Source of the DNA: an uncultured Eubacteriales bacterium
GTDB lineage: Bacteria; Bacillota; Clostridia; Oscillospirales; Acutalibacteraceae
Reading direction: 5' to 3'
Assembly (NCBI GenBank): GCA_964564305.1
Contig: CAZMAM010000003.1
Coordinates: 7,983 to 71,982, forward strand
DNA: 64,000 nt
A program made the translations under genes and the position numbers. Numbering within the stretch: position 1 is the stretch's first letter; each line of letters begins with the position of its first letter. Below are positions 4,460 through 58,822 of the stretch, piece by piece. The notes beneath the pieces are model-generated. The model did not search any database. It saw only the letters and a program-made list of their open reading frames with translations, and had not been told where the DNA came from.

Positions 4460-4465
4460 GCGGAG

Positions 4466-6133: not shown

Positions 6134-6155
6134 ACGGGACGGAGGCGAATATTCC

Positions 6156-6923: not shown

Positions 6924-6935
6924 GGAGGTGCGCAC

Positions 6936-9160: not shown

Positions 9161-9643
9161 GTGCGCAAAAACCCCATTTATCCGATGAGGGCGTCCGTTT
9201 TGTGTTTTGCCGTTTCCTTTTTTTCGCTCAGTGCGATACCTCTGGCACAGCTTTGCCCGGAAACTGTGAACAAAATTTTGGGATATGTGATTGCGGCGGT
9301 GTTTTGGCTGTTTTTATTTTCCGGGACGGTCTTGTTTTGGTTGGCGAAAAAACGGATCAGGCCGTACCGGCGAAAATTGAAATCCGTGGGTGAACTTTCC
9401 GCTTCCCGTCTCCCGGGCGTTTTTCGTTTTTCCCGTCGGCCGCTTTCTCTGATTATGTATGGGATTATTTTGGTGGGAGCGGTGTTGATTATTACCGACA
9501 TCATTTTTTCTTATGTGCCTTCGGCGGTGATGTTTCCGATTCTTTCGGTTACTTTGTTTGCGTTTGCGCTCCACTGTATTGTGGACAGCGAAACATATCA
9601 GGTCTTTCTGAAATACAGGAAAGGGATGGGTGCAGAGTTATGA
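9161..9643 (+). CDS. Hypothetical polytopic (about 4 TM) membrane protein
   Basis: Four hydrophobic helices. Its stop overlaps the start of the giant gene (ATGA at 9640-9643). Confidence 0.45.
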   Translation: MRKNPIYPMRASVLCFAVSFFSLSAIPLAQLCPETVNKILGYVIAAVFWLFLFSGTVLFWLAKKRIRPYRRKLKSVGELSASRLPGVFRFSRRPLSLIMYGIILVGAVLIITDIIFSYVPSAVMFPILSVTLFAFALHCIVDSETYQVFLKYRKGMGAEL

Positions 9644-12600: not shown

Positions 12601-15600
12601 GTTTCGAAGGATCAGGCGTTTGTGGTTTACGTCAAAGCTACGGATGCGGCGGGCAACGTGGAATATACCGATTCCCACGGTGTTATCTTTGACGCTACAC
12701 CGCCGAGTATTTCATTGACACCTTCGGACACCGGAAACGATTATGAAAACGGATTTTATACCGGGGATGCGCTGTTTGATCTTGCGGTTACCGATAAACA
12801 GCCGTCCAGCGGTATCCAATCGGTGGATTATACCGTTACCGTTAACGGAAGTGAGAAAATTTCCCAAAATCTGTTTACCTGTGATCCGTCTGCGGAGGAG
12901 GAACAACAAAGGGTGTTCCGTTTTCCGGAGAGCGGTAATTTTCTCATTACGGTTCCGAGCACGGGATTGTCGGAAACGGATCGGGTAACTCTTACCGTCA
13001 CCGTAAAGGACCTTGCGGGTAATCTGCAAACGGAAACGTTGGAGAATTTGCGCATCATTTCTTCACCCGCCGTTGTTCTCCTTTCTCCCATAGCAGAGGG
13101 TTATTACCGCAATCCGCAAACGGTCACCGTTACGGTGTGCGGCAAACCGGATTCGTTCGACGAAAATAAGGTTCATCTCACGGTTACCGCCACCGATGCC
13201 GCCGGAAAACCGGTCGCAGACGATCTTTCTCCGTATTATACGCTCGGCGCGTGGAGCCGGACTCAGAGCGGGGATCATGTTGCCGAATGTACTTTTCGCG
13301 GCAATGCCAACTATCGTGTCGGTGTGACATACGAAGAGCCGAAGGGCATGATCGGAGAAGCCGAAAAAGAGCTCAGTTTCACGGTAGATGCCGAAAAACC
13401 CACAGGCAAAGTGAGCATCGGGAGTCTGGGCGCATGGGAGACATTGCTGGAGAAACTGACCTTCGGGTTGTGGAGCCGGGATATTCTTCATGTTACCGCA
13501 ATTGCAGAGGATGCGATCAGCGCTCCGGATGTTCGGATAGATATGATTCGTTTGCCCGACAAAACCGCGAAGACGCAGGCCGAACTGGAAGCACTTGCCC
13601 CGGAGACATGGAAGACATATGAGCCGTTTGATGTCAAAACAGATGAAGTCTTCACCGTATACCTGAAATTGACGGACGCGGCGGGGAATGTGGCGTATAT
13701 TTCGTCTGACGGAATTATTTTGGATACCGAGAAATCCCGTATTACCATACGGCCCAAAGAAGCGGCGAACGAAAACGGATACTATAATCGGGATGTGCCT
13801 ATTGTCATAGAAGTTACGGAAGAAAACAAGGATGTGCATTCCGGCTTAAAGAGCATAATCTATCGGGTAGAGAATAACGGGGAGAAGACTCAGGAAGGGA
13901 CGCTGTTTACCTTTGAACGGGCGAATCCCGCGTATGAAGAATTGGTGGACACATGGAACAGCGATGAAGCCGGAAAAGAAGTGGTGGTAGACGCTCAGAA
14001 GAACAATTCGGATGCGGTCAGCGTCGTTGTCACGGTAACGGATAATGCGGGTAACGTACAGGAAGACGAAATAGCGCTGAAAATTGATGTGACCAAACCG
14101 AAGATACGGCTGACGTATGACCGGCAAACGGAGCGCGTGTATTCCGGACGGGGATATTTTATGACGGAGCGCACCGCGACGGTGGTAATCACCGAGAGGA
14201 CGTCCACATTTGACCCGGAGCAGGCAACGGCGGGATTGGTATTTTCGGGAACAGACGCGAGCGGGGCAGCGGTGGAACTCAATCGCGAGGCGATGATTGT
14301 CGATTGGGAAGAGCCGCACGAAGGAGCAACGCCGGACGAAGCCACACATACGGCGCACATTCATTTTACGGAAGACGCCAATTACACCTTCAGCGTGAGT
14401 TATACCGATAAGGCCGGGAACGCCAACGAGCCGGTCGATACCGGAGATTCGGTGACACCGTATACCTTCACGGTGGATAAAGAGGCACCAAGCGGCGTGA
14501 TTACGGCGGGAAACAATAGTTGGGATGTTTTGCTGTATACCTTAACCTTCGGGCTTTGGAGCAGAGAATCCGTAACCGTGAGTGCTTCGGTACAGGATGC
14601 CACCAGCCCGGTGACGGTAGAATATTTCAAAACCGATGCAACCGATTTGCTGAGCTTTGGAGATTTGGAAAAAATAGACGGCTGGGCGCTGTTTTCCGGC
14701 TTGACGGTATCTGCTGCTGAGCGGGACGAACGGTTTACGGTATATCTGCGTATTACGGATTATGCGGGGAATAGGATATATCTGCAAACAGACGGTCATG
14801 TAGTAGAGAAAACCGCGCCGAAATTAACGCTTACACCGCAGGAGACTTCAATTGAGCACAACGGTATCGGTGTATACAACGGCGATGTTACCGTATTGAT
14901 TCGGGCACAGGAGTCGGATCCGTATTCCGGTATTCAAAAAGTGGAATACTGGGTAGAATGCGCCGGCAGAGAGACCCAGCGGGAAACCCTTTTCACGTAC
15001 GAATATATCCGCGATACCGGCATCGGTAACAACGGCGGCGATCTGACCATTACGGAGGGCGGACAGGAAACCTCTCAGTACGGATTTGTTCCCACCTTTG
15101 AAGATTTGCAATCTTCGTTTGAACAGGTTATTACGGTGGATGCGGAAAAAAACAACAGCTGTGATGTTTCCGTTACCGTTGGCGTAACCGATAATGCGGG
15201 CAATTACGCACAGGAAAGCGTTTCGCTGGATATTGATATTACGGCGCCGGTCATCTCCGTTTCCTTCAACAATAACGCGGTGCATAAGACAGTTGGTGAG
15301 CGCGGATATTATCCTTCCGCACGAACGGCAACCGTAACCGTAACCGAGAGAACCGGGCACTTCAACGCGCAGCAAGCCACAGACAGCTTGAAGATTCAGG
15401 CGGTGAATGCCAAGGGAGAACCTGTGCGCAGCGAAGCGGCAGGACGGATTAGCGGCTGGACAACAACGGAACATTCGAATGAAAACACGGCAACTCATAC
15501 CGCTACCGTCGAATTTTCCGCCGATGCTAATTATGATTTTTCCCTGAGTTATACTGATTTGGACGGTTGGGAGAACGGGGAGATTGATACCGAGGGGTGC

Positions 15601-18276
15601 ATAACGCCTTATCATTTTACCGTAGACAAAACGGCGCCGACCGGTACCGTGACTGTCGAGAGCTTGGGTACGTGGGACAAGCTAATTGAGGTGCTGACAT
15701 TCGGATTATGGAGCAAAGACACGGTCTCGGTTACGGGAACCAGCGATGATTTGACCAGTCCGATTGATTCGGTAGATTATTACAAAACGCCGGATATTGT
15801 GGCCAAAACCGTTGAGGAATTGGAAAATATTTTCGAATGGGCTCCTTTCACCTCGTTGTCCGTTTCTCCGAACGAGCGGTTCGCCATTTACTTGCGAATT
15901 ACCGATAATGCGGGCAATGTCACCTATATCAGCACGGACGGCATTATCGTGGATGATCGCATTCCGGTATTTGAACAGGTACAGCCGGAAATCACATTGA
16001 CTCCGCTTTATCCGGAAGACGGGGTATTTTATCCGGAAGACGGGGTATATCAGTCAAACGTCACGGTGTCGGTCAGGGTGATTGATCCGAATGTGGGCGC
16101 GCAGGCTGTTTATTCCGGATTAAGAGAAATTCGATATGAGGTTACCAATTTGGGTAATATTACCCAAAGCGGAGTTCTGTTTAATTTCGTGTTGCAGAAT
16201 CCCACACAGCCGCAGCTGCTGCAGCTGTGGAAAAAACAGGACGCCATTGTGGTAGACAGCGCGCTGAATAACAGCAATCAGGTTTTGGTTCGGGTATTTG
16301 CCACAGATAACGCTGGAAACGAAAATGAGGAAGAAATCAGTCTGCAGATAGACGTCACACCTCCGGAAATTTCGGTTCGGTACGATAATAACGACGGAGA
16401 TACCTCTTTTGCGGAGGGCACCTATTTCAATGCGGATCGTCGTGCCACGATTACGGTGACGGAGCGCAATTTTGATCCGCAGAATGTAACGCTCAGCGTT
16501 ACCAATACCGATGGCCCCGTTCCGGTACTTTCGGAATGGTCAACGGCGTTGGGATCTTCGGAAAACGGAGATGATATTCGCCATATTGCGACATTGCTGT
16601 ACCATGCCGATGGAGATTACCGCTTCGATATTTCGCTCACCGACAGGGCGGGAAACGCCAATACGCCTGTGGATTACGGAACATCGCTTGCGCCCGTATC
16701 TTTTACCGTGGATCAAACATTACCGGTAATACAGGTGACATACGACAATAATGCTGCGGCAAATGGAAATTACTACAATGCTCCGAGAATCGGAACCGTT
16801 ACCGTGACGGAACACAATTTTGAAACGTCCCGTGCGTTGTTTACTTTAAATGCTACCGATAACGGCGTACAGGCTTCGCTTCCCACAGTCAGCGGATGGT
16901 CCTCAAGCGGTGATGTGCATACCGCAACGGTGCGTTATGCTCAAGATTCGCTGTATTCCTTTGATTTTGCGTATACCGATATGGCGGGCAATGCCGCCCC
17001 AGATATACCCGAACAGCAATTTTATGTCGATCAGACACAGCCGGAAGTGACCATTCAAAAAGTATCTGCGAATGGGGTCAACCGGAAATTAGATGAGTCC
17101 GCAAACACCGGAGAAGGAAATATCGGTTTTGTCATCACGGCAACCGATACCAACTTTGATATTTTTACGCCGGAACTGACGGCTGTGGTTCGTTCTTCTG
17201 ACACCTTTGAAGTCAGACAACTGGAAGTCGGATCATTCTCAGAAACGGCAAACGGCAGAAGGTATACTGTCTCCAATCTGGATACGGACGGAATTTATAC
17301 CGTTCGGTGTACGGTAATCGATAAAGCGGGCAATGCGTTTACACAAATTCATTTGGAAGACAGTCAGGGAAATGATTATGTCGAGAACCGTTCGGGAGAG
17401 GATGATTTGGTGACCTTTTCCGTGAACCGCTTCGGTTCCACATTTATGCTCGGTCAATCCACGGCAGATATGGTTGACCAATATTATGTGCAGCGCGTGA
17501 CGGAAGATTTGACTGTCATTGAAATCAACGCAGACCCGATTCAAGAACGTTATATTACTTCGGGCGGTGAGGACATTCACGAGAATGAGGGATATACTGT
17601 CACAGAAGAAGGCGGAAACGGCGATTGGTTTCGGTACACTTACCGCGTGAGCCGTTCACTGTTTGATGAAGAGGGCGAGTATCGCGTGGTGGTATCCTCC
17701 AAGGATAAGGCTGAGAACGATGCCTTCAGCGATGTCAAGGACGCTGCCATTGAATTTGTGGTTGACCGCACGGCGCCGGTGGTGACGGTAACCGGCTTGG
17801 CTCAGGGCGGAAGGTACCAAACGGAAAGACAAACGGTAACCGTTACTCCCATCGATGACGGAGGAGCGCTGCGTTCACTGACCGTTCGTATGGTGGAAGC
17901 AGACAGAGACGGCAACGTTACCGAAATATTATCGGAGCCGATCCGTCTTTCGGGAGAAGAACTGGCGACGGTTCTTGAGGAAAATGACGGTCATATCACC
18001 TTTGAAGTGGCGGAGGGGCTGTACCAAAATGTGCAAATCCTTTGCGACGATCAGGCGGTGGACGAAAACGGCGATTTTAATACTTTTGATACCGTTATCA
18101 CCAATGTTTCCGTATCGTCCAATGCTTTTATGATTTTCTGGGCAAACCGTCCGCTCCGTTACGGTATTATCGGTGGTGTGGCTTTGGTCGCGCTTGCGGT
18201 GTTTCTCCTGATTATCTTATTAAAGCGCAAAAAAGAAAAGGAGCAGGAAGAAGAGGTTTCTTCGGCGCAATCCTAA
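9640..18276 (+). CDS. Giant (2878 aa) cell-surface Ig-like repeat protein with a signal peptide and a C-terminal TM anchor
   Basis: The N-terminal signal-like helix is AAVMLALAVMLSAFPFSVIGAAAAQ. It has 2 carboxypeptidase-regulatory-like beta-sandwich units and about 7 Big_2-like units (e.g. GTTKITATK, GQITVTATKAG, GRVKVTATLKG). Four modules of roughly 350-385 aa are marked by TFGLWS(R/K) and TD(N/A)AGN motifs. The C-terminal TM GIIGGVALVALAVFLLIILL is followed by KRKKEKE. No LPXTG motif is present. Confidence 0.85.
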   Translation: MNKAANGFFRVAAVMLALAVMLSAFPFSVIGAAAAQKVFTFTVTDIAQSPLKGAQVSVFPPQEGEPIVMTTGAQGTASFDLDEGTAYRYEVSLYGYQTVAGEVDWEAGKADVTLMPASKAELKGKVTDSEDTPLPNVAVRLECQEDKRDTQTGPDGSFTFADVYEGETYTLTATLAEYKTHTVTVSDFSRETAVKLTRKESDPLKFSQSSVEITYGETVPQNIATGEKSQENADKYESSVISVATVDNSGKVTVIGVGTTKITATKSENEDYLNSSASYILTVNAGKQSALKWKNPVPQSLSWKETFTFSVSGGSGNGAVTYSVDKAEVAEIDPSSGVLTPKKPGQITVTATKAGEVKDGQQLYEDASITASLTLTKAKQATLTFTQPDEEYSVVFGETFANPATGGSVSGKITYAVEDSDIASVDENGTVTPLQSGRVKVTATLKGDEFYDDVSASYILNIQAAEQKNFHFLILGESFTVTFGDKFFNPALFGENKPIKYDSSDQTVATVDEHGNVTTLKQGKTVITATSPQDGRFDSKTIQYTLIVQRAEQTVVFETENIPQVTYGDDGFQNTASAKTTITYTSSKPETVAVDEATGKLTYLQSGIAIIKATAAETDQYKSAYAEYTISVGLAEQTVTFQKGSEVTVTFNDNENLFVNPAISDKQGAVNNVTYSTDSNLVEHLDVKSGQFTIKGAGTIIVRATIDEDKCYQGASGTYILTVEKDDQTIAFDRENYTLTSGHDFPEGESPKATEQGKFYGTGAITYAYQDDSNGIVKTFSPTDGALDLTYRLGTVTVTATKKGDINYKDASASYQLTVSPWVPEKEENYYHLDGNALPGNEWFRSAVSLFADNGCQVGITNEKGTEWFNSIPDMVTEDGENHSITFYLKNAQGDISDKITLSVKKDGTPPSVSLSKEAPSFAFRFLEIILFGTWHKDTVEYTAEASDELSGNTKIEYYLDTTGIDVKDREALDKISDWQPYDQSISVSKDQAFVVYVKATDAAGNVEYTDSHGVIFDATPPSISLTPSDTGNDYENGFYTGDALFDLAVTDKQPSSGIQSVDYTVTVNGSEKISQNLFTCDPSAEEEQQRVFRFPESGNFLITVPSTGLSETDRVTLTVTVKDLAGNLQTETLENLRIISSPAVVLLSPIAEGYYRNPQTVTVTVCGKPDSFDENKVHLTVTATDAAGKPVADDLSPYYTLGAWSRTQSGDHVAECTFRGNANYRVGVTYEEPKGMIGEAEKELSFTVDAEKPTGKVSIGSLGAWETLLEKLTFGLWSRDILHVTAIAEDAISAPDVRIDMIRLPDKTAKTQAELEALAPETWKTYEPFDVKTDEVFTVYLKLTDAAGNVAYISSDGIILDTEKSRITIRPKEAANENGYYNRDVPIVIEVTEENKDVHSGLKSIIYRVENNGEKTQEGTLFTFERANPAYEELVDTWNSDEAGKEVVVDAQKNNSDAVSVVVTVTDNAGNVQEDEIALKIDVTKPKIRLTYDRQTERVYSGRGYFMTERTATVVITERTSTFDPEQATAGLVFSGTDASGAAVELNREAMIVDWEEPHEGATPDEATHTAHIHFTEDANYTFSVSYTDKAGNANEPVDTGDSVTPYTFTVDKEAPSGVITAGNNSWDVLLYTLTFGLWSRESVTVSASVQDATSPVTVEYFKTDATDLLSFGDLEKIDGWALFSGLTVSAAERDERFTVYLRITDYAGNRIYLQTDGHVVEKTAPKLTLTPQETSIEHNGIGVYNGDVTVLIRAQESDPYSGIQKVEYWVECAGRETQRETLFTYEYIRDTGIGNNGGDLTITEGGQETSQYGFVPTFEDLQSSFEQVITVDAEKNNSCDVSVTVGVTDNAGNYAQESVSLDIDITAPVISVSFNNNAVHKTVGERGYYPSARTATVTVTERTGHFNAQQATDSLKIQAVNAKGEPVRSEAAGRISGWTTTEHSNENTATHTATVEFSADANYDFSLSYTDLDGWENGEIDTEGCITPYHFTVDKTAPTGTVTVESLGTWDKLIEVLTFGLWSKDTVSVTGTSDDLTSPIDSVDYYKTPDIVAKTVEELENIFEWAPFTSLSVSPNERFAIYLRITDNAGNVTYISTDGIIVDDRIPVFEQVQPEITLTPLYPEDGVFYPEDGVYQSNVTVSVRVIDPNVGAQAVYSGLREIRYEVTNLGNITQSGVLFNFVLQNPTQPQLLQLWKKQDAIVVDSALNNSNQVLVRVFATDNAGNENEEEISLQIDVTPPEISVRYDNNDGDTSFAEGTYFNADRRATITVTERNFDPQNVTLSVTNTDGPVPVLSEWSTALGSSENGDDIRHIATLLYHADGDYRFDISLTDRAGNANTPVDYGTSLAPVSFTVDQTLPVIQVTYDNNAAANGNYYNAPRIGTVTVTEHNFETSRALFTLNATDNGVQASLPTVSGWSSSGDVHTATVRYAQDSLYSFDFAYTDMAGNAAPDIPEQQFYVDQTQPEVTIQKVSANGVNRKLDESANTGEGNIGFVITATDTNFDIFTPELTAVVRSSDTFEVRQLEVGSFSETANGRRYTVSNLDTDGIYTVRCTVIDKAGNAFTQIHLEDSQGNDYVENRSGEDDLVTFSVNRFGSTFMLGQSTADMVDQYYVQRVTEDLTVIEINADPIQERYITSGGEDIHENEGYTVTEEGGNGDWFRYTYRVSRSLFDEEGEYRVVVSSKDKAENDAFSDVKDAAIEFVVDRTAPVVTVTGLAQGGRYQTERQTVTVTPIDDGGALRSLTVRMVEADRDGNVTEILSEPIRLSGEELATVLEENDGHITFEVAEGLYQNVQILCDDQAVDENGDFNTFDTVITNVSVSSNAFMIFWANRPLRYGIIGGVALVALAVFLLIILLKRKKEKEQEEEVSSAQS

Positions 18277-18453
18277 GGCAACACCGCACAAAGACCGGCT
18301 ACCGCCTTTGTCGCCCATCTGCGGACGTCTTTTCCGTCATATATTACAAAAATCCTCGGAAGTACACAAAGTATTCCCTGCGGTTTTTGTTTCATCTGAC
18401 GAAAAATTCGCTCCTGCTTCACGCACGACAATCTTTATGCGGTATTACCCTAA
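18274..18453 (-). repeat. Intergenic repeat family, copy A (inverted relative to copies B and C)
   Basis: The reverse complement aligns over about 175 nt with 36729-36910 and 54641-54825. Shared blocks are GCATAAAGATT, GGATTTTTGTAATA, AAAAGACG and CCGGTCTTTGTGCGGTGTTGCCTTA. Its terminal TTA supplies the TAA stop of the giant gene. Confidence 0.75.
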
Positions 18454-36728: not shown

Positions 36729-36910
36729 CTAAACCAATGCCGCATAAGGATTTTTGTGCGTAAAGCGGTAGAGGGATTTTTTGTCAGATGAGTCCAAAAC
36801 CTCAGCGAAACCCTTGTGTATTTGCGGGGATTTTTGGCCAAATTTCAGAAAAAACGCCCGCATATGGGTAGGTATTGCGCGGCGGCCGGTCTTTGTGCGG
36901 TGTCACCTTA
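36729..36910 (+). repeat. Intergenic repeat family, copy B
   Basis: It aligns with copy C and with the reverse complement of copy A. It ends with CCGGTCTTTGTGCGGTGTCACCTTA. Confidence 0.7.
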
Positions 36911-36911
36911 A

Positions 36912-49975: not shown

Positions 49976-50004
49976 TTGACAGATGCTCGCCTTTTGGGTA
50001 AAAT
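49976..50004 (+). promoter_or_regulatory. Sigma-70-type promoter of the B12-regulated operon (TTGACA-17-TAAAAT)
   Basis: TTGACA 49976-49981, a 17-nt spacer, and TAAAAT 49999-50004. Confidence 0.65.
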
Positions 50005-50039
50005 ATTCCCGTAAAAACCGCATAGAAAAAGCCGTCGGT

Positions 50040-50245
50040 TTTCCGCCATTGTGCGCGGAAATGAAAAGGGAACCCGGTGTGAATCCGGAACAACCGCCAT
50101 TACTGTGTTAGGAGTCAAGCGGCGGGCGCGCGGGCAAAAGCTCGCAGCCATTGGGTGTAACGCCTGAGAAGGTGCCCGTCCGAAGTCGCGGGGTGTTTTG
50201 CTGTGACTGCTCCTTTAGCCAGGAGACCTGCCGATGTCTGAGAAC
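50040..50245 (+). promoter_or_regulatory. Cobalamin (AdoCbl-type) riboswitch aptamer
   Basis: Conserved blocks are AAAAGGGAACCCGGTGTGAATCCGG, CCGCCATTACTGT, the B12-box-like AGCCATTGGG...CCTGAGAAGG, and the 3' AGCCAGGAGACCTGCC. Confidence 0.85.
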
Positions 50246-50326
50246 GGCCGTTACGAACGGGCGAGGAACGTACAGCCGGGTGAAAACATCGGCATCGGGT
50301 TGACCTTATGCCCTTTTTCTCCGACT

Positions 50327-50373
50327 GCCCTTTTGCGTTCCGCCGTTATCCGGCGTTCGCAGAAGGGCTTTTT
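50327..50373 (+). terminator. Riboswitch expression-platform terminator
   Basis: GCCCTTTTGCG pairs with CGCAGAAGGGC (11 bp including one G-U), with an inner GCCG/CGGC helix. It is followed by TTTTT, immediately upstream of the RBS and start of the first gene. Confidence 0.7.
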
Positions 50374-50396
50374 GCGGAGTAAAGGGGAAGTGCGCT

Positions 50397-53006
50397 GTGA
50401 AAACAGGGGCTCGGCTGTTTTGTGTGCTGCTTTGTATTTCGGTTATTCTGAGTGCGGTACCGTTTGCCGCTCGGGGCGAAGAAAATTTTACGGCGGTGAT
50501 TTCGCTCGAAGGGCTCACATTGGGTCAGGGGTTTTATGTTGAACCCACCGCTTACACATTGGACGAAATCAACGATCTTCTTTCTGCTGTGGGAGACGGG
50601 CCGTACACCGCCGAAACGGTGACGGTTGCCGCACTGACACACGCTATGCTGACGGATTACGGCCTTAAGGCCAAAATCACCGGTAGCTGGCAAAAAAGCG
50701 GGTATCTCAGCGCCGTACAGGGGATAGACACCGATGAAGTGCGCCTTCCCGAAGTTCTTCTTCAAGCGGGAATGCGGGAGGATTTTCCGAAAAATACCGA
50801 TGACTGGCTCGGAGAATTTGATTATACCGCGCAAAGCGGTTGGATGGTGAGTGTCGATCACCGCTTTATTTCGGAAAGCATGAGCGCACAAAGTTTGAAA
50901 AACCGTGCTGTGGTGCGCTGGCAGTTTACCCTTGCCGGGTACGGGGCGGATCTCGGCTGCGAGGACGGATTCGGTGCCGCGGCCTATTTTTCGGCGGCCG
51001 ACCGGTCTGAAGTGTACCGTCTCATAGCCGAAAGCGGCGATACGGCGGCAAAACGGGAAGCCCTCGGTATCCTCGCTCGGTTAGATGCGGGAGGGGATGA
51101 AGTGGCGCGTGCCGCTGCGCTCTTTACGCAGCCCGCGCAGCCGAACCGGCAGGCGTCCGCCGCATTGCACACCGCTATGGCCGCATTGGCCGGAAAAGTT
51201 CCCGCGCCGGTAATGAGTTCCACCGGTGGGGAATGGACGGTGATTGCTCTTTCCCGCGGAGGATATTATCCGGCGGGGCATGCATATTTTGAGGGGTACT
51301 TACGTTCCCTCGGTGCCGCTGTTCGCGAAAATGTTTCGGAAGACGGGCGGCTGCACCCGGTCAAGTCTACCGAAAATTCCCGGGTCATCCTAGCGCTGAC
51401 AGCTATCGGAGAGGATCCCTCCGATTTTAACGGCGTCAATTTGCTGTCTCCGTTACGCGATTCGGAATTTGTGAACGCACAGGGCATTAACGGCCCTATT
51501 TTTGCGCTGATTGCCCTGAATTCAGGGCAGGTTGAAGGATATGATGAAGCTAAGGAGGCCTGTTTGCGCACGATTCTCTCCGCGCAATCGGAGGATGGCG
51601 GATGGTCGCTTTCCGGTTTCGGGGCCGACCCGGATATGACGGCAATGGCGCTTCAGGCGCTGAGTTCGTATGCCGCGCGCAATGAGGTTCAGGTGGCGGC
51701 GGAAAAGGGCTTTGCCTGCCTTTCCGAACTGCAGCGGGAATCGGGCGGGTATTCTTCTTGGGGTACGGTGAACGCCGAAAGTATTGCGCAGGTGATTATT
51801 GCCGCCACAGCGTGGGGAATCGATCCGCAAAATGATTCGCGGCTGGTGAAATCCGGAGGCAGCGCGGTTTCGGCATTACTCACGTTTTTTGATGAGAACG
51901 AGGGAATGTTTTCCCATACCGCCGGTACCGGCGCCAACCTGATGGCGAGTGAGCAGGGGTGTCTGGCACTGGTTGCGTATGACCGTTGGGTAAATGCGCG
52001 CCCGGCTCTGTACGACATGTCCGGCGCGGACACTCCGCCTTCCGATGAATTCCGTCTTACCGCTTTTTTGTCTATGCCGGTGCAAGCGGAGAACCGGGTG
52101 GGGGCAGTTTTTTCCGCCACAGTGTTCCTTTCCGGATTTATGTCGGGCGTAAAACTGATTGACGGCGTCATTCGTCTGCCGGCCGGGGTGAATGTGACCG
52201 GCATGAAGTCCGGCGACCGTTTGGGCGGCGGACAGCTTTCGTATGCGGTGGAGCCGCAGACGCATCAATTGCGGTTTGTTTATTTTGATCCGAGCGGAGA
52301 AAGTGAAATTTCCATTTTCGGGGAGGATAAGCCGATTCCGCTTTTTCAAATTACTTTTTCACCGGAACAAGCATTCTCGGACGGGCAGCGCCTGCGCTTT
52401 GAACTTTCCGGCCTTACTTTAAAGCGATCCGCTCATCAGGGTGAGGACGGCGCTATGGAAACGGCGGATATTTCCGAGGCGTATGCCGAGGTTAGCTTAA
52501 TACAGGGATTCTCTTTTACCGCCAAACGGCTGTACGCGGGGGACGGGGTTGATTTGATTCCGGAGGATTGGCAGGCGGTAGCCGTGGCGGTAACCGGCGC
52601 AAGTGAGGGAGATGCATTGAATTTTTACGGCGGAGCGCTGCTGGCCGATTTTTCCTGTAACGCGCTGCTCAGCGAGCAAAACGGGGTGATTACTTTTGTG
52701 TGCATGGCTCCTGTATCCGCTGAACTTTCCGCCTTCACAGATCCTTCGCATTACACGGTTTCCGGGGGCGGCAACGCATTTGCTTTCGGGGACGCAAACA
52801 GCGACGGGCGCATCAATGCACAGGATGTGCTGATCGCTGTAAACGCTTGGTTACGCGTGGGGGATGCTCCGTCTCCTCAGGAAGTGCTGCGCCTGAATGT
52901 GAACGGCGATGCGCGAATCAACACCTTCGATGCGCTGGGCATTGCCGCCTATATGGTGGACGGCGAGCCGTTCGATATTCTGCAAACGGCAGGTGAGGGA
53001 CGGTGA
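50397..53006 (+). CDS. Secreted multidomain protein: DUF4430-like module + prenyltransferase/terpene-cyclase-like alpha/alpha toroid + cohesin-like module + dockerin; putative cobalamin-binding surface protein
   Basis: A signal peptide is present. The N-module ends in GEFDYTAQSGWMVSVDH. The toroid repeats include GEWTVIALSRGG, EDGGWSLSGFGADPDMTAMALQAL and ESGGYSSWG. The C-terminal dockerin has GDANSDGRINAQDVLIAVNAWL and NVNGDARINTFDALGIAAYMV. Confidence 0.7.
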   Translation: MKTGARLFCVLLCISVILSAVPFAARGEENFTAVISLEGLTLGQGFYVEPTAYTLDEINDLLSAVGDGPYTAETVTVAALTHAMLTDYGLKAKITGSWQKSGYLSAVQGIDTDEVRLPEVLLQAGMREDFPKNTDDWLGEFDYTAQSGWMVSVDHRFISESMSAQSLKNRAVVRWQFTLAGYGADLGCEDGFGAAAYFSAADRSEVYRLIAESGDTAAKREALGILARLDAGGDEVARAAALFTQPAQPNRQASAALHTAMAALAGKVPAPVMSSTGGEWTVIALSRGGYYPAGHAYFEGYLRSLGAAVRENVSEDGRLHPVKSTENSRVILALTAIGEDPSDFNGVNLLSPLRDSEFVNAQGINGPIFALIALNSGQVEGYDEAKEACLRTILSAQSEDGGWSLSGFGADPDMTAMALQALSSYAARNEVQVAAEKGFACLSELQRESGGYSSWGTVNAESIAQVIIAATAWGIDPQNDSRLVKSGGSAVSALLTFFDENEGMFSHTAGTGANLMASEQGCLALVAYDRWVNARPALYDMSGADTPPSDEFRLTAFLSMPVQAENRVGAVFSATVFLSGFMSGVKLIDGVIRLPAGVNVTGMKSGDRLGGGQLSYAVEPQTHQLRFVYFDPSGESEISIFGEDKPIPLFQITFSPEQAFSDGQRLRFELSGLTLKRSAHQGEDGAMETADISEAYAEVSLIQGFSFTAKRLYAGDGVDLIPEDWQAVAVAVTGASEGDALNFYGGALLADFSCNALLSEQNGVITFVCMAPVSAELSAFTDPSHYTVSGGGNAFAFGDANSDGRINAQDVLIAVNAWLRVGDAPSPQEVLRLNVNGDARINTFDALGIAAYMVDGEPFDILQTAGEGR

Positions 53007-53578
53007 GCCGGAAAAAACGTACCGCGCTGATTATCGGCGCGACGCTTCTTTTGCTCTTGATCTTGGCGGCTTGGATTCTTTGGATATTTTTTCGTCCGAA
53101 TACGCCGACTTTGAGCATTGCGGATGTCCGGGGAGAAGGAGAAATAGCGGTTCCGGTGACACTCTCTTCTTTGGGCGATGCGGTATATCCTGCGGCGAGC
53201 GCGGAAATTCTTTTTGATAACACCCGGCTTCGTTTTCTCGGAGTAGATTCGGGGGAAGTGACGGTGGCTTCTGCGCAGGGCAGGCAGATTCCCACATGGC
53301 AGGTCAATCCGGACCGTTGTAATCAAACCGGAAAAATCACGCTGCTGTATTTGGATACCGCTTTATCTTATTCGTTCAATTCCGCTTCGCTCCCCGCTCG
53401 GGATGCGGTGCTCTTTACGCTTCGTTTTGCTTCTGTTCCGGGACAAACGGGAGGCAGTGCGCTCACTTTTTCGGATGCGGTGTTCGCGGCTTCCGATGAA
53501 AAGGAGAGTCTTTCCATGGCCAACGGAAGCTTGAGAACCAAGGATGGTACGGTGACGGTTGGGGAGGCGGCAAAATGA
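53003..53578 (+). CDS. Membrane-anchored cohesin-like protein
   Basis: The GTGA start overlaps the preceding stop. The N-terminal TM is ALIIGATLLLLLILAAWILWIFF. The beta-rich domain LSIADVRGEGEIAVPVTLSSLGDAVYPAASAEILFDNTRLRFLGVDSGEV resembles cohesin N-terminal strands. Confidence 0.5.
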   Translation: MSRKKRTALIIGATLLLLLILAAWILWIFFRPNTPTLSIADVRGEGEIAVPVTLSSLGDAVYPAASAEILFDNTRLRFLGVDSGEVTVASAQGRQIPTWQVNPDRCNQTGKITLLYLDTALSYSFNSASLPARDAVLFTLRFASVPGQTGGSALTFSDAVFAASDEKESLSMANGSLRTKDGTVTVGEAAK

Positions 53579-54645
53579 AACGCAAGCTGCTTTGTCTTTT
53601 GCTGATTTTGTCGCTGCTTACCGCTTGCGCCGCGCCCGTAACATTTGGCGGGCGCAGGCCGCTTGCGGATGATGGCATTGTTTCGGTCGAAACGGTAGCC
53701 GCCTTGCGGGAGCAAAACGGTGTGGCGGTGATGACGGGGAATTCGAACGGAGTTTCTTTTGAGTGGACGCTGTTTGGTGCGGATATTCCGAATGACGCTT
53801 CCTTATCGCTTGGCGTGACGGTGGAGGGAGTTGGCGAAAGCAGCTTGACCGTACGCTTTTCGGATACTTCTCCGCTGCCTTTTTCTCCGCTGTTGTCCTT
53901 GACCCTTCCGGTGCGGTGGAATGTCCAGAGCGCTTCTGTCGGGATAGCCCGGGCAAACGGCATAGCGGCGCTCTCAACGGCATCGGTGACTCAATCCGGT
54001 CAGGGAAGTACCGTGCATCTTTCGGTGACCGATCGAGACGGCGCTCTGAGAGTGGTGCCGCAAATGGGCTTTACTGCGGCACCGAATATTACGCGCCCCA
54101 CGGCGCTGCCGACGGCGTCTGCGGAAACCGTGACGCCCGATGCGTATCAAAATCCGCCTTCCGGCTCCGATATACAGTTGGCGACCGTTCCGTCCCAAGG
54201 GACCGATGCTGTCGCCGATCCGACAGAGACCGGAATGCTCACTTGTATGCTCAGTATTGAGTGCGCGAGCATTTTTTCCCATTTAGCGGATTTGAATGAG
54301 GCCAAGCTCGCCGTTTTACCGGAAAACGGGGTGATTTTGTCCCGCTTGGAGTGTCGCTTTCAGCAGGGAGAGAGCGTCTGGTCCGTGTTGCAGCGGGTCT
54401 GCCGGGAACAGGGTATACCGCTTGAAGCTTCATTTACTCCGGTGTACGGCTCGACTTATGTGGAAGGAATCGGCAATCTCTATGAATTCGATTGCGGAGA
54501 ATTGTCCGGCTGGATGTATGAGGTCAACGGCTGGTTTCCCAATTACGGCTGCAGCCTGTATGAGCTGAAAGACGGAGATGAGATTCAGTTCCGCTATACC
54601 TGCGAACTCGGCAGCGATATCGGCGGAGCGTCGGCTTTAAATTAA
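53575..54645 (+). CDS. Lipoprotein with a C-terminal DUF4430-like (transcobalamin beta-domain-like) module
   Basis: The lipobox is LSLLTAC. The C-terminus is GESVWSVLQRVCREQGIPLE...GELSGWMYEVNGWFPNYGCSLYELKDGDEIQFRYT. An ATGA overlaps the preceding gene. Confidence 0.7.
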   Translation: MKRKLLCLLLILSLLTACAAPVTFGGRRPLADDGIVSVETVAALREQNGVAVMTGNSNGVSFEWTLFGADIPNDASLSLGVTVEGVGESSLTVRFSDTSPLPFSPLLSLTLPVRWNVQSASVGIARANGIAALSTASVTQSGQGSTVHLSVTDRDGALRVVPQMGFTAAPNITRPTALPTASAETVTPDAYQNPPSGSDIQLATVPSQGTDAVADPTETGMLTCMLSIECASIFSHLADLNEAKLAVLPENGVILSRLECRFQQGESVWSVLQRVCREQGIPLEASFTPVYGSTYVEGIGNLYEFDCGELSGWMYEVNGWFPNYGCSLYELKDGDEIQFRYTCELGSDIGGASALN

Positions 54646-54825
54646 GGCGATATGGCATAAAGATTTTTGTGCGTAAAACGGGAGCGGATTTCTCGCCGGA
54701 GAAAACAAAATCCGCTGGGAAACCTTTGGGTATTTGCACAGATTTTTGTAATAGATTACGCAAAAGACGCCCGGCCGTTGGGCAGCCATTGCATGCAGAC
54801 CCGGTCTTTGTGCGGCGTTGCCTTA
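54641..54825 (+). repeat. Intergenic repeat family, copy C (inside the B12 operon)
   Basis: It has TTAAGGC...GCCTTAA termini and an internal perfect 9-bp hairpin AGCGGATTT/AAATCCGCT. It aligns with copy B and with the reverse complement of copy A. Confidence 0.75.
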
Positions 54826-54870
54826 ATTACTTTGCGTTGCCATAAATTGTCATAAAGCGAAAAGAAGGGA

Positions 54871-55755
54871 GTGAGGCCGTTGGGAGCGTTTTACGGGTGG
54901 CATCCGCTGCCCACAGCGGTGTATTTTGCGCTGGTTCTGGGCTTTTCCATGACGTTATCCCATCCGGTAAGCGAAGCGGTCTCTCTGCTTGGCGCCATTT
55001 TGCTTCTTATTTGCCTAAACGGGAGAAAAGGAGCGCGCTTTGCGCTGAGTGTGGCTCTGCCAGCGCTGTTGCTGACGGCAGCGGTCAATCCGCTTTTCAG
55101 TCATCAAGGCGTTACGGTACTCGCCTTTTTTCCAACCGGAAATCCGTTAACGCTGGAGAGCATTTTGTATGGGCTTTCGGCGGGTTGTACGCTGGCGTCG
55201 GTACTGATGTGGTTTGCGTGTCTTACGGCGGTGATGACCACCGATAAAATCGTGTATCTGTTCGGCAGAATTGCCCCTGCTCTTTCGCTGCTGCTGAGTA
55301 TGGCTTTGCGTTTTGTGCCGCGTTTTGTCAATCGATTTCGGGAAGTGCGTTCGGCGCAGGAAGGACTTGGCCGTTCTCTTGTGAAAAAAGGGCCGGTACG
55401 GCGGATAAAATGGCTTGTCGCCTGCTTCTCTGGCGTTGTGACATGGTCGTTGGAAAATGCGGTGGAAACGGCGAACAGTATGAAGGCGCGCGGGTACGGG
55501 CTTCCGGGGAGAACCGCTTTTTCTCCGTTTCGATTTTCCGAATCGGATGGGGTGCGTCTCGCTTTTCTTGGTCTTTGCGCCTTGATTTTGCTGGGCGGTT
55601 CGGTCGCCGGGGGCATGACTTTCCACTGTTACCCGGAGGTATCCGGGGTGTTTACGCCGTACACCGCGCTGCTCTGTTCTGTTTATTTGCTCATGTGCCT
55701 GTGTCCGATGGCGGGAAGGGGAGGAATGCGGATTGCAAACCGTGCGCGTGGATAA
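54871..55755 (+). CDS. ecfT: ECF transporter transmembrane (T) component, EcfT/CbiQ family
   Basis: It is polytopic, with the conserved cytoplasmic-loop region ARGY...R (SMKARGYGLPGR). TTG 54880 is a possible alternative start. Confidence 0.8.
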   Translation: MRPLGAFYGWHPLPTAVYFALVLGFSMTLSHPVSEAVSLLGAILLLICLNGRKGARFALSVALPALLLTAAVNPLFSHQGVTVLAFFPTGNPLTLESILYGLSAGCTLASVLMWFACLTAVMTTDKIVYLFGRIAPALSLLLSMALRFVPRFVNRFREVRSAQEGLGRSLVKKGPVRRIKWLVACFSGVVTWSLENAVETANSMKARGYGLPGRTAFSPFRFSESDGVRLAFLGLCALILLGGSVAGGMTFHCYPEVSGVFTPYTALLCSVYLLMCLCPMAGRGGMRIANRARG

Positions 55756-58357
55756 TTTGACTTTTCGCTATTCGGGCGGGGTTAAGAATGCGCTTGTGAA
55801 TGTCTCCTTCGAATTAAAAGAGGGGGATTTCGCGGTACTCTTCGGTCCGTCCGGCGGGGGAAAATCCACTTTGCTGGCTCATCTCAAGCCTTCGTTAACT
55901 CCTTTTGGCGAGCGTTCAGGTGAGGTGCTGTTTGACGGTCAGCCTCTGTCTTCCCTTTCACCGCGGGAGGCAGCGGCAAAAATCGGATATGTCGGTCAGT
56001 CGCCCGACAATTGGTTGGTAACCGACAAAGTTTGGCACGAACTCGCGTTCGGGCCGGAATCACTGGGAGAAGAAACCGGATTCATTCGCCGAAAGGTATA
56101 TGAAATGGCCGCGTTTTTCGGAATGGACCGTTGGCTGAACCGTCCCGTTTCGGAACTTTCCGGCGGGCAGAAACAAATGGTGAATCTTGCCTCCGCTTTG
56201 GTGATGCAGCCGGAATTGCTGCTGCTTGACGAGCCTTCCGCGGGGCTGGATCCGGTGGCGGCGGGAGAATTTTTCCATTTGCTGCAAACGGTGCATCGCG
56301 AACTTGGCGTGACGGTGCTGCTTTGTGAACACCGCCTGGAAGAGGTACTACCGCTGGCTACGTCCGCTTATTATTTGGAAAAAGGCGAATTAGCGGTGAG
56401 CGGAACTCCCAGAGAGGTGGCAGAGTTCCTTGTGCGCACCCGTTCGCGTTATCTATCGGCGATGCCCGCGGCGGTTCAGCTCTGGGAAGCGGCGGGGGAG
56501 GCCGAAGAATTACGGGATGATCCGATCCCGCTGACGGTGGGGGAAGGACGCGCGTTACTCAAAAACATATCCGATCGTCGGCCGCTTCAGCCCATTCGAA
56601 AGTCGGCGCCGGTACGAGCCGGGGATGTTCTGGTCAGCGTGAACGGCGTGTGGTTTTCTTATCCGCAGGCCGAAGATGTGCTGAAAAATTTCACGTTTTC
56701 GGCACGGGGCGGGGAACTTTTTTGTATTATGGGAGCAAACGGGGCGGGAAAATCCACCGCGCTGAAGCTGATTGCGGGGCTGCTGACTCCGCGTTGCGGA
56801 GACATTATCACCGAAGGGTCTGTCGGTCTGCTTCCTCAGGACGTACGCACTCTGTTTATCCGCCGAACCGTTAAAGAGGAATTGGAGGACGGCCTAGGTG
56901 AGGATTCGCCTTCCGGTGACGAATTGAAGCGCAAGATAGAGCAGACAGCTTTGACGTTTGATTTGGTTTCGCTCTACGACCGTCACCCGTACGATCTTTC
57001 CGGCGGAGAACGGCAGCGCCTGGCGATTGCCAAGCTGATGCTGCGCGATCCGAAGATTTTGCTGCTGGATGAGCCCACAGTATCGCTGGACGAGGCGGGC
57101 CGAGCGGCATTGGCCGGGGTGTTGTGTTTGCTCAAACATCGGGGCATCGCGATAGTGGCGGTCAGCCACGATGTGACCTTTTGCAGCGAAAACGCCGATT
57201 ACTGCGCTTTGCTGTGTGACGGATCGCTCACCGGCGAAGGGGATCCGGCGGAATTTTTTGCCGAAAACACCTTTTATACCACGGAGGTCAGCCGTATGTG
57301 TCGGGGACTTTGCCGAGCCGTCACCGTGGATGACCTGCGCGCCGAACTGTCATTACCTCCCCGTGAGACCTCTTCCCCGCCTGCTACACGGGTACAAGAT
57401 CAAAGCGACGGGGCGCCTCATGCCGCGCCACCGCCGAAATTATCCAGGGCGCGCAAAATCGGAGCCGTGCTATCGGGAGCCGCTGCGCTTGCGCTGATGC
57501 TGGTTGCTGCCGCGAAATCCGATCTTTCCGCTTTGTTGACATCGGGCGGTATCACTGCGGAGGGCGGACTTGAACTCGGCATCATCGCGCTTTTTCTGCT
57601 TTCCCTTGTCTGTCTTGCTGTGTGCTTGGGGCGCGGGAAACAGGCGGAGCGTTTGTCGTGCGCCGATTTACCCAAGCGGACAAAGCGGCTTTCGCTTTTG
57701 CCGCTGCTTTTGGTACCGCCTACGCTGGCGATAGGGTTTGTCATTCCGGGCAGTAAACCGTATTATTTGGTTTCACTCGCAGTGCTTGTGGAATGTATGC
57801 TGCCGTTTTTCATTCGTTTTGAGAAACGGCGTCCGCCTGCCCGGGAACTGACGCTGTTGGCTACGTTATGCGCCATCGGAGTTGCGGGAAGAATTGCCTT
57901 TTTCATGCTGCCGGAGTGTAAGCCGGTACTCGCGCTCACGATAGTTGCGGGCGCCGCGCTCGGAGGCGGAAGCGGTTTTCTGGTGGGTGCGGTGACCATG
58001 CTTGTCTCGAATCTCTTCTTTTCGCAAGGGCCGTGGACTCCGTGGCAGATGGCGGCCATGGGACTTTGCGGACTTCTTGCGGGGTTATTGTTTGAGAGCG
58101 GCATGCTCAAGCGAACGCGAGCCTCTCTTTGTGTATTCGGCGCGATTGCCGCTTTGCTGTACGGCGGGATTATGAACCCGGTTTCCGCACTCATCTGGGG
58201 CGGAGAATCGCTGAATGCATCTATCTTGCTTGCATCCGTTCTCACCGGATTTCCCATGGATTTGGTGCATGCGATCGCCACCGCTTTGTTTCTTTGGTTT
58301 GCCGCCGAACCGTTTATCGAAAAAATCACTCGTTTGCGGGTTAAATACGGAATATGA
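55733..58357 (+). CDS. Fused tandem ECF/ABC ATPase (EcfA-EcfA') with a C-terminal polytopic membrane domain (putative S component)
   Basis: Two Walker A motifs (GPSGGGKST, GANGAGKST), two LSGG signatures and two Walker B motifs (LLLDEPSAGLD, LLLDEPTVSLD) are present. A Pro/Ser linker is followed by about 7 TM helices (e.g. GPWTPWQMAAMGLCGLLAGLLF). Confidence 0.8.
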   Translation: MQTVRVDNLTFRYSGGVKNALVNVSFELKEGDFAVLFGPSGGGKSTLLAHLKPSLTPFGERSGEVLFDGQPLSSLSPREAAAKIGYVGQSPDNWLVTDKVWHELAFGPESLGEETGFIRRKVYEMAAFFGMDRWLNRPVSELSGGQKQMVNLASALVMQPELLLLDEPSAGLDPVAAGEFFHLLQTVHRELGVTVLLCEHRLEEVLPLATSAYYLEKGELAVSGTPREVAEFLVRTRSRYLSAMPAAVQLWEAAGEAEELRDDPIPLTVGEGRALLKNISDRRPLQPIRKSAPVRAGDVLVSVNGVWFSYPQAEDVLKNFTFSARGGELFCIMGANGAGKSTALKLIAGLLTPRCGDIITEGSVGLLPQDVRTLFIRRTVKEELEDGLGEDSPSGDELKRKIEQTALTFDLVSLYDRHPYDLSGGERQRLAIAKLMLRDPKILLLDEPTVSLDEAGRAALAGVLCLLKHRGIAIVAVSHDVTFCSENADYCALLCDGSLTGEGDPAEFFAENTFYTTEVSRMCRGLCRAVTVDDLRAELSLPPRETSSPPATRVQDQSDGAPHAAPPPKLSRARKIGAVLSGAAALALMLVAAAKSDLSALLTSGGITAEGGLELGIIALFLLSLVCLAVCLGRGKQAERLSCADLPKRTKRLSLLPLLLVPPTLAIGFVIPGSKPYYLVSLAVLVECMLPFFIRFEKRRPPARELTLLATLCAIGVAGRIAFFMLPECKPVLALTIVAGAALGGGSGFLVGAVTMLVSNLFFSQGPWTPWQMAAMGLCGLLAGLLFESGMLKRTRASLCVFGAIAALLYGGIMNPVSALIWGGESLNASILLASVLTGFPMDLVHAIATALFLWFAAEPFIEKITRLRVKYGI

Positions 58358-58361
58358 AGAC

Positions 58362-58404
58362 ACCCTCCGGTACGGCTTTACGCCATTGCCGGAGGGCAAT
58401 TTTT
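58362..58404 (+). terminator. Intrinsic terminator at the end of the ECF operon
   Basis: CCCTCCGG...CCGGAGGG is followed by CAATTTTTT. Confidence 0.7.
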
Positions 58405-58468
58405 TGCCGCTAACTCTACACAATTTCTAAACGAAGCCTTGAGAAACCCTGTATTTATGCGGCTCTTT

Positions 58469-58822
58469 TGGTGGAGGCGACGGGAATTGAACCCGTGTCC
58501 GAAAATCGTTTCGACGCAGCTTCTCCGGGCGCAGTTTGTCTTTTGAGATTCCCCTCGGCGGTCGCCGGCAAACAGGCTGCCGCCTACGGTAGCCGCTGAG
58601 TCATGACGAAAAACGCGGCGCCTTTTCGTTCACGTTCACCGCTAAATCGACGCTCCGACTCCGAGCCGCGGTACGCTCAGACGGAACGCGCAGCTAAAGT
58701 TTAAGCCGCGAGAGCAACAGAATTGTTGTCGTTTGTTTTGAAAAGTGTCAGGTTTTTAAGCGAACCTGCCCCGCTGCCCGCTGCTTCGCCGTTGCCATCC
58801 CCGTCGAAACCGTTACGCCCCC
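58469..58822 (-). ncRNA. ssrA: tmRNA (SsrA), 354 nt
   Basis: The reverse complement starts GGGGGCGTAACGGTTTCGACGGGG and ends GGTTCAATTCCCGTCGCCTCCACCA. The acceptor stem has the G3-U pair. The tag frame is ...KTNDNNSVALAA-TAA. Confidence 0.92.

Follow-up and report, generated by a model that had tools for sequence, protein, structure and literature searches.

A cobalamin-riboswitch operon of a gut Clostridium encodes a putative corrinoid capture and import system with a predicted cohesin–dockerin tether

Most gut bacteria need corrinoids yet cannot make them, and the locus analysed here raises the question of how a gut Clostridium may capture these compounds outside the cell and bring them in. 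The locus lies in a 64,000-nucleotide stretch of contig CAZMAM010000003.1 (assembly GCA_964564305.1) from an uncultured bacterium of the Acutalibacteraceae, which we call the window. It consists of a regulatory leader followed by five plus-strand genes, here g1 to g5, for a secreted multidomain protein, a membrane-anchored cohesin, a lipoprotein and the two polypeptides of an energy-coupling factor (ECF) transporter. Judging from sequence comparisons, we consider that the operon is probably a cobalamin-repressed system for corrinoid scavenging and import, equipped with a cohesin–dockerin tether; its role in corrinoid uptake is well supported. A previous interpretation of the same DNA, made from its letters alone (the sequence-only reading), had arrived at a similar picture; all the in-silico checks which it proposed came out positive, and its interpretation is supported.

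The operon leader is a cobalamin riboswitch with a terminator. The aptamer aligns with the whole of the Rfam model RF00174 (positions 1-189 of 189) and scores 78.8 bits with E = 9.5e-18, where the gathering score is 31.5; its B12 box, AGCCAGGAGACCUGCC, aligns with the consensus of this family. Further downstream stands the strong terminator that had been described from the letters: an 11-bp stem (50327-50337 paired with 50358-50368) is followed by T5 (U5) at 50369-50373 and ends 8 nt before the Shine-Dalgarno sequence AAAGGGGAA (50381-50389). The minimum free energy (MFE) fold recovers this terminator together with an outer helix which also sequesters the Shine-Dalgarno sequence. The consensus-like promoter TTGACA-17-TAAAAT of the sequence-only reading was likewise recovered, and from its position it presumably drives the operon.

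To place these features among relatives, we use a scan of species-representative genomes, in which at least 568 loci with g1 relatives, for the most part from gut Clostridia (31-72% g1 identity, many genera), were found and 80 of them fetched for comparison; individual related loci are given below as L numbers. A riboswitch is present upstream of the cassette and on the same strand in 20 of the 22 relatives tested, and in the other two the upstream sequence is too short. These counts come from the Rfam model, which was used instead of an exact B12-box pattern that was too strict across loci (two matches).

The transporter genes point to the same substrate. The g4 product is indeed the EcfT (T) component, with 32.7 bits for the CbiQ/EcfT family PF02361 (cut-off 25) and EcfT of L. 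delbrueckii (5d3m_D, E = 5.9e-9) as its best match in the PDB; its start is better placed at TTG 54880. The g5 product had been described as an EcfA–EcfA' pair fused to a membrane domain, and this description holds. Its ATPases score 286 and 278 bits with ECF_ATPase_1 and ECF_ATPase_2 (TIGR04520/TIGR04521), slightly short of the respective equivalog cut-offs (315 and 330), and 224.8 bits with TIGR01166 cbiO (cut-off 211.8), while their matches in the PDB include CbiO 3gfo and EcfA2 4mki (E ~1e-36). The membrane domain can now be specified as four transmembrane helices followed by an S component. Taken in isolation, this S domain scores 27.7 bits with PF07155 (cut-off 26.7) and 29.7 bits with PF12822 (cut-off 30.7), and both families are matched in 21 of 21 members of its family. 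The profile of these 21 members (A3), run against the PDB, aligns at E = 1e-16 with residues 6-177 of the 182-residue chain 6fnp_A; among other S components, 4hzu_S alone was matched, with E = 0.27. Entry 6FNP is ECF-CbrT; since its 265-aa EcfT chain is common to 10 entries and the 182-aa chain is unique to it, the latter chain is CbrT. On this profile evidence, the membrane domain of g5 is a homolog of CbrT, a proven B12-specific ECF S component. The substrates carried by ECF-CbrT are cobalamin and cobinamide, and hemin does not inhibit it (PMC5997447). Because the fused domain is homologous to CbrT, the link to B12 import is stronger than in the sequence-only reading.

The Pfam and NCBIfam names of g4 and g5 (CbiQ, CbiO) would by themselves recall a cobalt transporter of the CbiMNQO type. 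However, these models cover EcfT and EcfA generally, no CbiM or CbiN accompanies them, and the S domain matches CbrT, not CbiM/NikM, so that a cobalt transporter has hardly any probability in our view. In the related loci, A–A' and S are fused in 44 cases and encoded by separate genes in nine; in L042 the S gene precedes the ATPase gene, showing that S is a separable module. A second EcfT and EcfA–A' pair follows the cassette in one locus (L057:17556-19957).

The five genes form a stable set. Gene-set counts were made by searching six-frame open reading frames (ORFs) of the fetched loci with the window's own domains, and the cassette is complete in 46 of the 46 loci with enough contig. The survey of gut Clostridia suggested from the letters found this gene set to recur. 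Where there is room downstream, the dockerin is followed by the g2 cohesin within 700 nt in every case (63/63 loci). More than 960 homologs of g1 of about 900 aa are known, the few source names being Oscillospiraceae and Firmicutes metagenome-assembled genomes (MAGs), and one cluster at 90% identity holds 1259 member sequences. The fetched loci derive for the most part from MAGs of the human, ruminant, horse and rabbit gut and belong to Oscillospiraceae, Acutalibacteraceae, Faecousia, Lawsonibacter, Ruminococcus, Lachnospiraceae, Christensenellaceae and Clostridium. The cassette also occurs in MAGs labelled Alistipes, Actinomycetes, Propionibacteriaceae, Bifidobacteriaceae and Coriobacteriales (L023, L043, L056, L058, L068), which could reflect either binning error or horizontal transfer.

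The g1 product is the candidate binder. Its expected order of a DUF4430-like module, an alpha/alpha toroid, a cohesin-like module and a dockerin was recovered, with an additional small beta module before the dockerin that is conserved in all loci. All 26 members of the family match DUF4430 (PF14478), at best with E = 6.5e-10, and the toroid families SQHop_cyclase_C and Prenyltrans are matched in 24 and 19 of the 26, respectively. The AlphaFold2 (AF2) model of g1, built on 26 sequences, has a predicted local distance difference test score (pLDDT) of 81.9, and a Foldseek search with this model found similarity to transcobalamin, to terpene cyclases and to cohesins, the last with target TM-scores of up to 0.76. 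The toroid reaches target TM-scores of 0.47-0.50 with transcobalamin over ~380-460 columns. The internal module is cohesin-like by fold (0.64-0.76 with known cohesins; 2vo8 0.76, 2vn5_A 0.71); in Pfam Cohesin, 10 of 18 family members match and the window copy has no match at E <= 0.01. The C-terminal dockerin is clear from sequence: PF00404 (type I) gives 30.1 bits against a cut-off of 22.9, 25 of 26 members match, and PDB dockerins are matched as well. Each of its loops, DANSDGRINAQD and NVNGDARINTFD, has 12 residues with D/N at positions 1, 3 and 5 and D at position 12, and a helix follows each of them.

The g2 product was correctly read as a membrane-anchored cohesin. A Lys/Arg-rich N-terminus precedes the single transmembrane helix, which is found in 66 of 69 family members, and Pfam Cohesin (PF00963) gives 25.0 bits, above its cut-off of 24.1, and is matched by all 28 family members searched. 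The AF2 model (pLDDT 85.6) retrieves only cohesins among the top 47 Foldseek matches (E = 1.6e-8, target TM-score up to 0.75). For g3, the lipoprotein with a C-terminal DUF4430 was confirmed by 59.8 bits with PF14478 and by a signal peptide ending in a lipobox with an invariant Cys, MKRKLLCLLLILSLLTAC. Among the relatives of g3, a Cys stands after the hydrophobic region in eight of eight loci inspected, and the strict lipobox pattern is found in 24 of 60 members. The N-terminal domain of g3 (aa ~21-175, 53635-54100) has no Pfam, PDB or cohesin-profile match; it is conserved and shows invariant G, W, F and W positions (family alignment A4).

Roughly half of the relatives of g1 (L033:9143-10009 and 35 further loci) carry, in place of the N-terminal SLBB domain, a region of ~280 aa with no significant Pfam match; the SLBB domain of g3 is kept in all these loci. 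Between the riboswitch and g1, a small ORF (~70-140 aa) on the same strand occurs in 47 of 81 related loci. It carries the Pfam domain PF18780 'HNH_repeat' (L033:8808-9143, 46 bits; L001:9719-9997, 37.5 bits) and a Lys/Arg-rich tail, and the one sequence read shows no signal peptide; it is absent from the window and from L002.

Taken together, these parts suggest the following scheme, in which ligand binding, the dockerin–g2 pairing and the order of hand-off are what we infer. At high intracellular cobalamin, the bound riboswitch would favour the terminator and the helix sequestering the Shine-Dalgarno sequence, switching the operon off, and at low cobalamin read-through would allow expression of all five genes. 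The secreted g1 protein would bind corrinoid between its SLBB beta-grasp and alpha/alpha toroid in a transcobalamin-like manner; its dockerin would plug Ca-dependently into the g2 cohesin, and the single N-terminal helix of g2 would keep the binder on the outward side of the membrane, where the cohesin-like and X-like modules of g1 would act as a stalk. The g3 protein, on its flexible linker, may either pair its SLBB domain with the g1 toroid in trans or shuttle corrinoid onward to the CbrT-like domain. Finally, the CbrT-type S component fused to EcfA–EcfA', together with EcfT, would perform the ATP-driven import. The targeting signals (signal peptide of g1, transmembrane helix of g2 and lipobox of g3) are consistent with this model. 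The coordinates of all the features are collected in Table 1.

Table 1. Features of the operon and its borders (window positions)
Feature	Position	Strand	Basis or remark
Sigma-70-like promoter, TTGACA-17 nt-TAAAAT	49976..50004	+	consensus 11/12; 15 nt 5' of aptamer
Cobalamin riboswitch aptamer, Rfam RF00174	50019..50249	+	covariance-model match
Expression platform, intrinsic terminator	50327..50373	+	MFE fold of 50250-50400, z = -2.73; letters read directly
g1, secreted corrinoid-binder candidate, 869 aa, signal peptide aa 1-27	50397..53006	+	
g1 N-terminal SLBB/DUF4430 beta-grasp, aa ~30-195	50484..50981	+	PF14478; model secondary structure
g1 alpha/alpha toroid, aa ~204-545	51006..52031	+	Pfam at family level; Foldseek
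g1 internal cohesin-like beta-sandwich, aa ~555-702	52059..52502	+	Foldseek fold match
g1 small beta module, 'X-like', aa ~706-790, before dockerin	52512..52766	+	AF2 secondary structure
g1 C-terminal dockerin with two Ca-binding loops, aa ~795-866	52779..52994	+	PF00404
g2, type-II membrane protein, 191 aa, transmembrane helix aa 8-26 and cohesin	53003..53578	+	Pfam, AF2, Foldseek
g3, lipoprotein, 356 aa	53575..54645	+	lipobox LLTAC; N-domain, low-complexity linker, C-terminal SLBB/DUF4430
Dispersed repeat between g3 and g4, resembling a miniature inverted-repeat transposable element	54650..54830	+	two further window copies; ~20-bp terminal inverted repeats
g4, EcfT (T component), 291 aa	54880..55755	+	TTG start as in gene call of relative L082
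g5, whole	55733-58357	+	two ABC domains and membrane domain
g5 N-terminal part, fused EcfA–EcfA' ATPases, aa 1-540	55733..57352	+	two ABC_tran domains
g5 C-terminal part	57458..58357	+	four linker transmembrane helices aa 576-696, then CbrT-like S component aa ~700-874
Terminator-like hairpin and T-run 3' of g5	58385..58406	+	

Several findings weigh against this reading, and they concern the ligand, the tether and the expression of the operon. As for the ligand, the DUF4430 match of the window's own g1 stays under the Pfam cut-off (19.8 versus 23.8 bits), the eukaryotic family Cobalamin_bind (PF01122) has no match in the operon proteins at E <= 0.1, and the g3 SLBB family profile retrieves no transcobalamin, intrinsic factor or haptocorrin from the PDB, giving noise at E > 0.4. 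With the profile of the whole g1, the PDB yields weak matches only, to dockerins and squalene cyclases, and likewise none of these three carriers. The likeness of DUF4430 and the toroid to the transcobalamin domains, which the sequence-only reading had drawn, stands for fold and architecture only and does not extend to a sequence match.

A further point of this kind is the homologous operon lsa1836-1840 of L. sakei, which has a similar gene set, encoding an ECF module together with toroid-like and SLBB-like extracytoplasmic proteins as separate polypeptides. Heme uptake is proposed for it, and heme was docked into the modelled binders (bioRxiv 10.1101/864751); the part of that preprint considered here describes no cohesin, dockerin or riboswitch. 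The substrate of the window's operon could by analogy be heme or another tetrapyrrole, but the cobalamin riboswitch, found in the window as in 20 of the 22 relatives, and the CbrT homology of the S domain argue against heme here, as hemin is no competitor of cobalamin uptake in ECF-CbrT. We regard a heme transporter as very improbable.

The toroid also fits terpene cyclases as well as it fits transcobalamin. It might then be an enzyme acting on an extracellular substrate, terpene-cyclase/prenyltransferase-like or a hydrolase, and not a binder: its sequence matches SQHop_cyclase_C and Prenyltrans, Foldseek retrieves drimenyl-PP synthase at 18% identity, and residues aa 411-417 (51627-51647) form an invariant motif, DPD[I/M]T[AS]M, which we take to resemble the DxDDTA motif known from class II terpene cyclases, except for a replacement of its final Asp. 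On the other hand, the neighbourhood contains no isoprenoid genes, and the secretion of g1, its SLBB fusion, the riboswitch and the linkage to a B12 S component fit the transcobalamin-like architecture predicted earlier (PMC1796856). An enzymatic role is thus highly unlikely in our estimate, and a corrinoid binder is preferred.

As for the tether, pairing of the g1 dockerin with the g2 cohesin is likely, a strong inference from the conservation and gene order of the two modules. The loops and helices of the dockerin (…INAQDAL…WLRK…NVNxDxRINTFDALGI…) are near-invariant from Ruminococcus to Clostridium. By mean distance, the dockerin (0.35) is second only to the SLBB domain of g3 (0.25), being as conserved as the ligand-binding domains, and the internal cohesin of g1 is the least conserved module (0.56), with only 10 invariant columns. 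There are, however, two cohesins and one dockerin per cassette, and co-variation does not separate the candidates: in a mirror-tree comparison with overall divergence controlled, the partial r of dockerin divergence is 0.42 with g2 (the best value) and 0.39 with the internal cohesin, against 0.00 with the S domain. The two cohesins are distant kin only (hhalign E = 0.0045). Conservation of the g2 strands is high on 3, 6, 7 and 8 and low on 5; since strand 5 is poorly conserved, we do not claim a canonical 8-3-6-5 dockerin-binding face.

Perhaps, then, B12 uptake is kept and the true partner of the dockerin is the internal cohesin of g1, either between molecules (in trans), so that g1 forms daisy-chained oligomers, or within one molecule (in cis), like a clasp, while g2 binds something else or only nucleates the chain. 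The cohesin-like fold of this module (target TM-score 0.76; Pfam in 10 of 18 members) and the nearly equal co-variation speak for such a pairing, as does L078, in which two tandem dockerin proteins stand ahead of a single g2; moreover, the R. flavefaciens ScaH dockerin binds its own cohesin (PMC5301203). Yet the internal cohesin is the least conserved module whereas the dockerin helices are near-invariant, domains that lie side by side on one chain would be expected to correlate in any case, and g2, which is never parted from the dockerin gene, would be left without an evident role beyond anchoring. On balance, self-pairing of g1 appears rather unlikely to us. The tandem arrangement of L078 (L078:10208-15426) comprises one protein with a toroid and one without, with the ECF genes lying upstream.

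The dockerin could alternatively plug g1 into a general species-specific scaffoldin of a cellulosome or amylosome, with g2 an unrelated small cohesin protein. Some carriers are indeed Ruminococcus, including an R. flavefaciens MAG (L019), and the 'Coh-Doc' proteins ScaO and ScaM of R. flavefaciens FD-1 bind ScaA/ScaB cohesins; this strain also has divergent cohesins, and its proteins (ScaK to ScaP, ScaO, ScaM) might include orthologs of g1 or g2. The portions of three R. flavefaciens cellulosome papers that we drew on (PMC5301203, PMC4081043, PMC2930009) contain no mention of squalene, prenyl, cobalamin or ABC and give no architectures. Against a scaffoldin partner stands the identity of the dockerin signature in Ruminococcus, Faecousia, Lawsonibacter, Lachnospiraceae, Christensenellaceae and Clostridium, which indicates that the dockerin belongs to the cassette and not to the cellulosome of a given species. 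Most of these groups are, to our knowledge, not known as cellulosome producers. In addition, g2 co-occurs in all 63 loci, and a search of the window outside the operon for a cohesin, dockerin, cellulosome cluster, glycoside hydrolase or B12 enzyme found none, its other genes being housekeeping ones. We therefore hold docking into a general scaffoldin to be quite improbable and retain g2 as the preferred partner.

A further limit concerns the location of the tether. The g2 cohesin begins ~5 residues past the transmembrane helix, which would place the tether near the membrane, within the zone of the cell wall instead of on the outside of the cell; with the cohesin at the membrane, beneath the cell wall, capture at the 'surface' is doubtful.

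The last point against the proposed scheme concerns expression. The five genes had been described as co-directional with overlapping or adjacent borders, and this is correct for g1/g2 and g2/g3 (4 nt each) and g4/g5 (23 nt); g1 and g2 are translationally coupled via a GTGA overlap, with the g2 start on the g1 stop. It does not hold for g3 and g4, which are separated by a gap of 234 nt (54646-54879) occupied by a dispersed repeat. This MITE-like repeat of ~175 nt has further intergenic copies at 18274-18440 (-) and 36742-36911 (+), with 72-77% identity among copies, belongs to no Rfam family at gathering score and is absent in the closest relative, L002. It is an insertion outside the ancestral operon, which could alter the expression of g4–g5 in this genome.

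One of the repeat copies follows the stop of a giant 2878-aa ORF (9640-18276, +) with Big_2, Big_13, Big_3 and CarboxypepD_reg repeats, probably a surface adhesin. Among the other neighbours, a transfer-messenger RNA gene (RF00023, 164 bits; 58469-58822, -) is convergent and directly downstream of the operon, and a gene for an FHA-domain protein (with DUF6382) is clustered with a Ser/Thr protein kinase gene upstream (4460-8618, +), unrelated to the operon.

A more far-reaching scheme may be put forward tentatively, although we consider it doubtful. The system might be a cellulosome-like vitamin assembly, in which g2 nucleates a chain and the internal cohesin of g1 recruits more dockerin-bearing binders, as the tandem dockerin proteins of L078 suggest, to form a multivalent corrinoid antenna. 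It could then be the main B12 route of gut Oscillospirales, a Gram-positive counterpart of the Bacteroides BtuJ/H/G relay. If this were true, the antenna would feed a transporter of the ECF class, whose definition includes the lack of extracytoplasmic binding proteins.

The comparison with known systems shows which parts of the proposed system have precedents. ECF-CbrT of L. delbrueckii (PDB 6FNP; Santos et al. 2018, PMC5997447) has a homologous S component, a homologous EcfT and ECF-type ATPases, and the substrates expected here are the same, cobalamin and cobinamide. CbrT is a group II S component sharing its ECF module, whereas here A, A' and S are placed on one polypeptide with four extra transmembrane helices, which makes a dedicated module that does not exchange S components. 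Three extracytoplasmic proteins and riboswitch control come in addition.

Such extracytoplasmic proteins were anticipated in 2007 by Burroughs, Balaji, Iyer and Aravind (PMC1796856), who predicted that Gram-positive secreted SLBB and toroid proteins encoded with CbiO/CbiQ scavenge B12. Their proteins are similar in the secreted combination of SLBB and toroid, in the paralogous SLBB proteins of one operon and in the CbiO/CbiQ-like linkage; their fusions include LPXTG, Ig, FIVAR, fasciclin and beta-propeller but neither cohesin nor dockerin, no S component was identified, and no riboswitch is mentioned. Eukaryotic transcobalamin, intrinsic factor and haptocorrin sandwich B12 with the same pair of toroid and beta-grasp DUF4430, the latter being the C-terminal domain of TCN proteins (PMC4350170). 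In g1 the domain order is permuted, with SLBB at the N-terminus, and in place of circulating proteins we propose binders tethered to the cell.

In function, the nearest parallel is the BtuJ/BtuH/BtuG-BtuB relay of B. thetaiotaomicron, also a riboswitch-controlled multi-protein extracytoplasmic capture system of a gut commensal (PMC13616437), although its folds are unrelated (beta-propeller, DUF4465), its lipid anchors sit on the outer membrane and its transport depends on TonB and BtuFCD. According to the same review of 2026, extracellular capture in Gram-positive Firmicutes 'remains entirely uncharacterized'. The cassette is a concrete candidate for extracellular B12 capture in gut Clostridia.

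The cohesin–dockerin pairs of C. thermocellum (type I) and the cohesins of C. perfringens GH84C/GH33 (2o4e, 2vo8) resemble the modules described here in the jelly-roll fold and the duplicated Ca-binding dockerin, and X-Doc dyads likewise have a beta module directly before the dockerin, as in g1, whose dockerin is of the Pfam type I. Unlike in those pairs, the cargo would be a candidate vitamin binder instead of a toxin or a carbohydrate-active enzyme, and the anchor is a minimal transmembrane cohesin protein encoded in the same operon, with which the pair travels across genera. Our literature search found no paper connecting cohesin–dockerin modules with B12, in agreement with the sequence-only reading, which knew of no such tethering for vitamin scavenging. 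If the tether is real, cohesin–dockerin recognition gains a defined physiological role beyond polysaccharide degradation, an ECF transporter is shown to cooperate with accessory binders outside the cytoplasm and to carry its S component covalently fused, and bacterial relatives of transcobalamin become available for studying cobamide selectivity and the competition with Bacteroides and the host. Thus, B12 uptake by ECF transporters with transcobalamin-like accessory binders is already known, its scavenging role having been predicted in 2007, while the cohesin–dockerin anchoring and the A–A'–S fusion appear undescribed.

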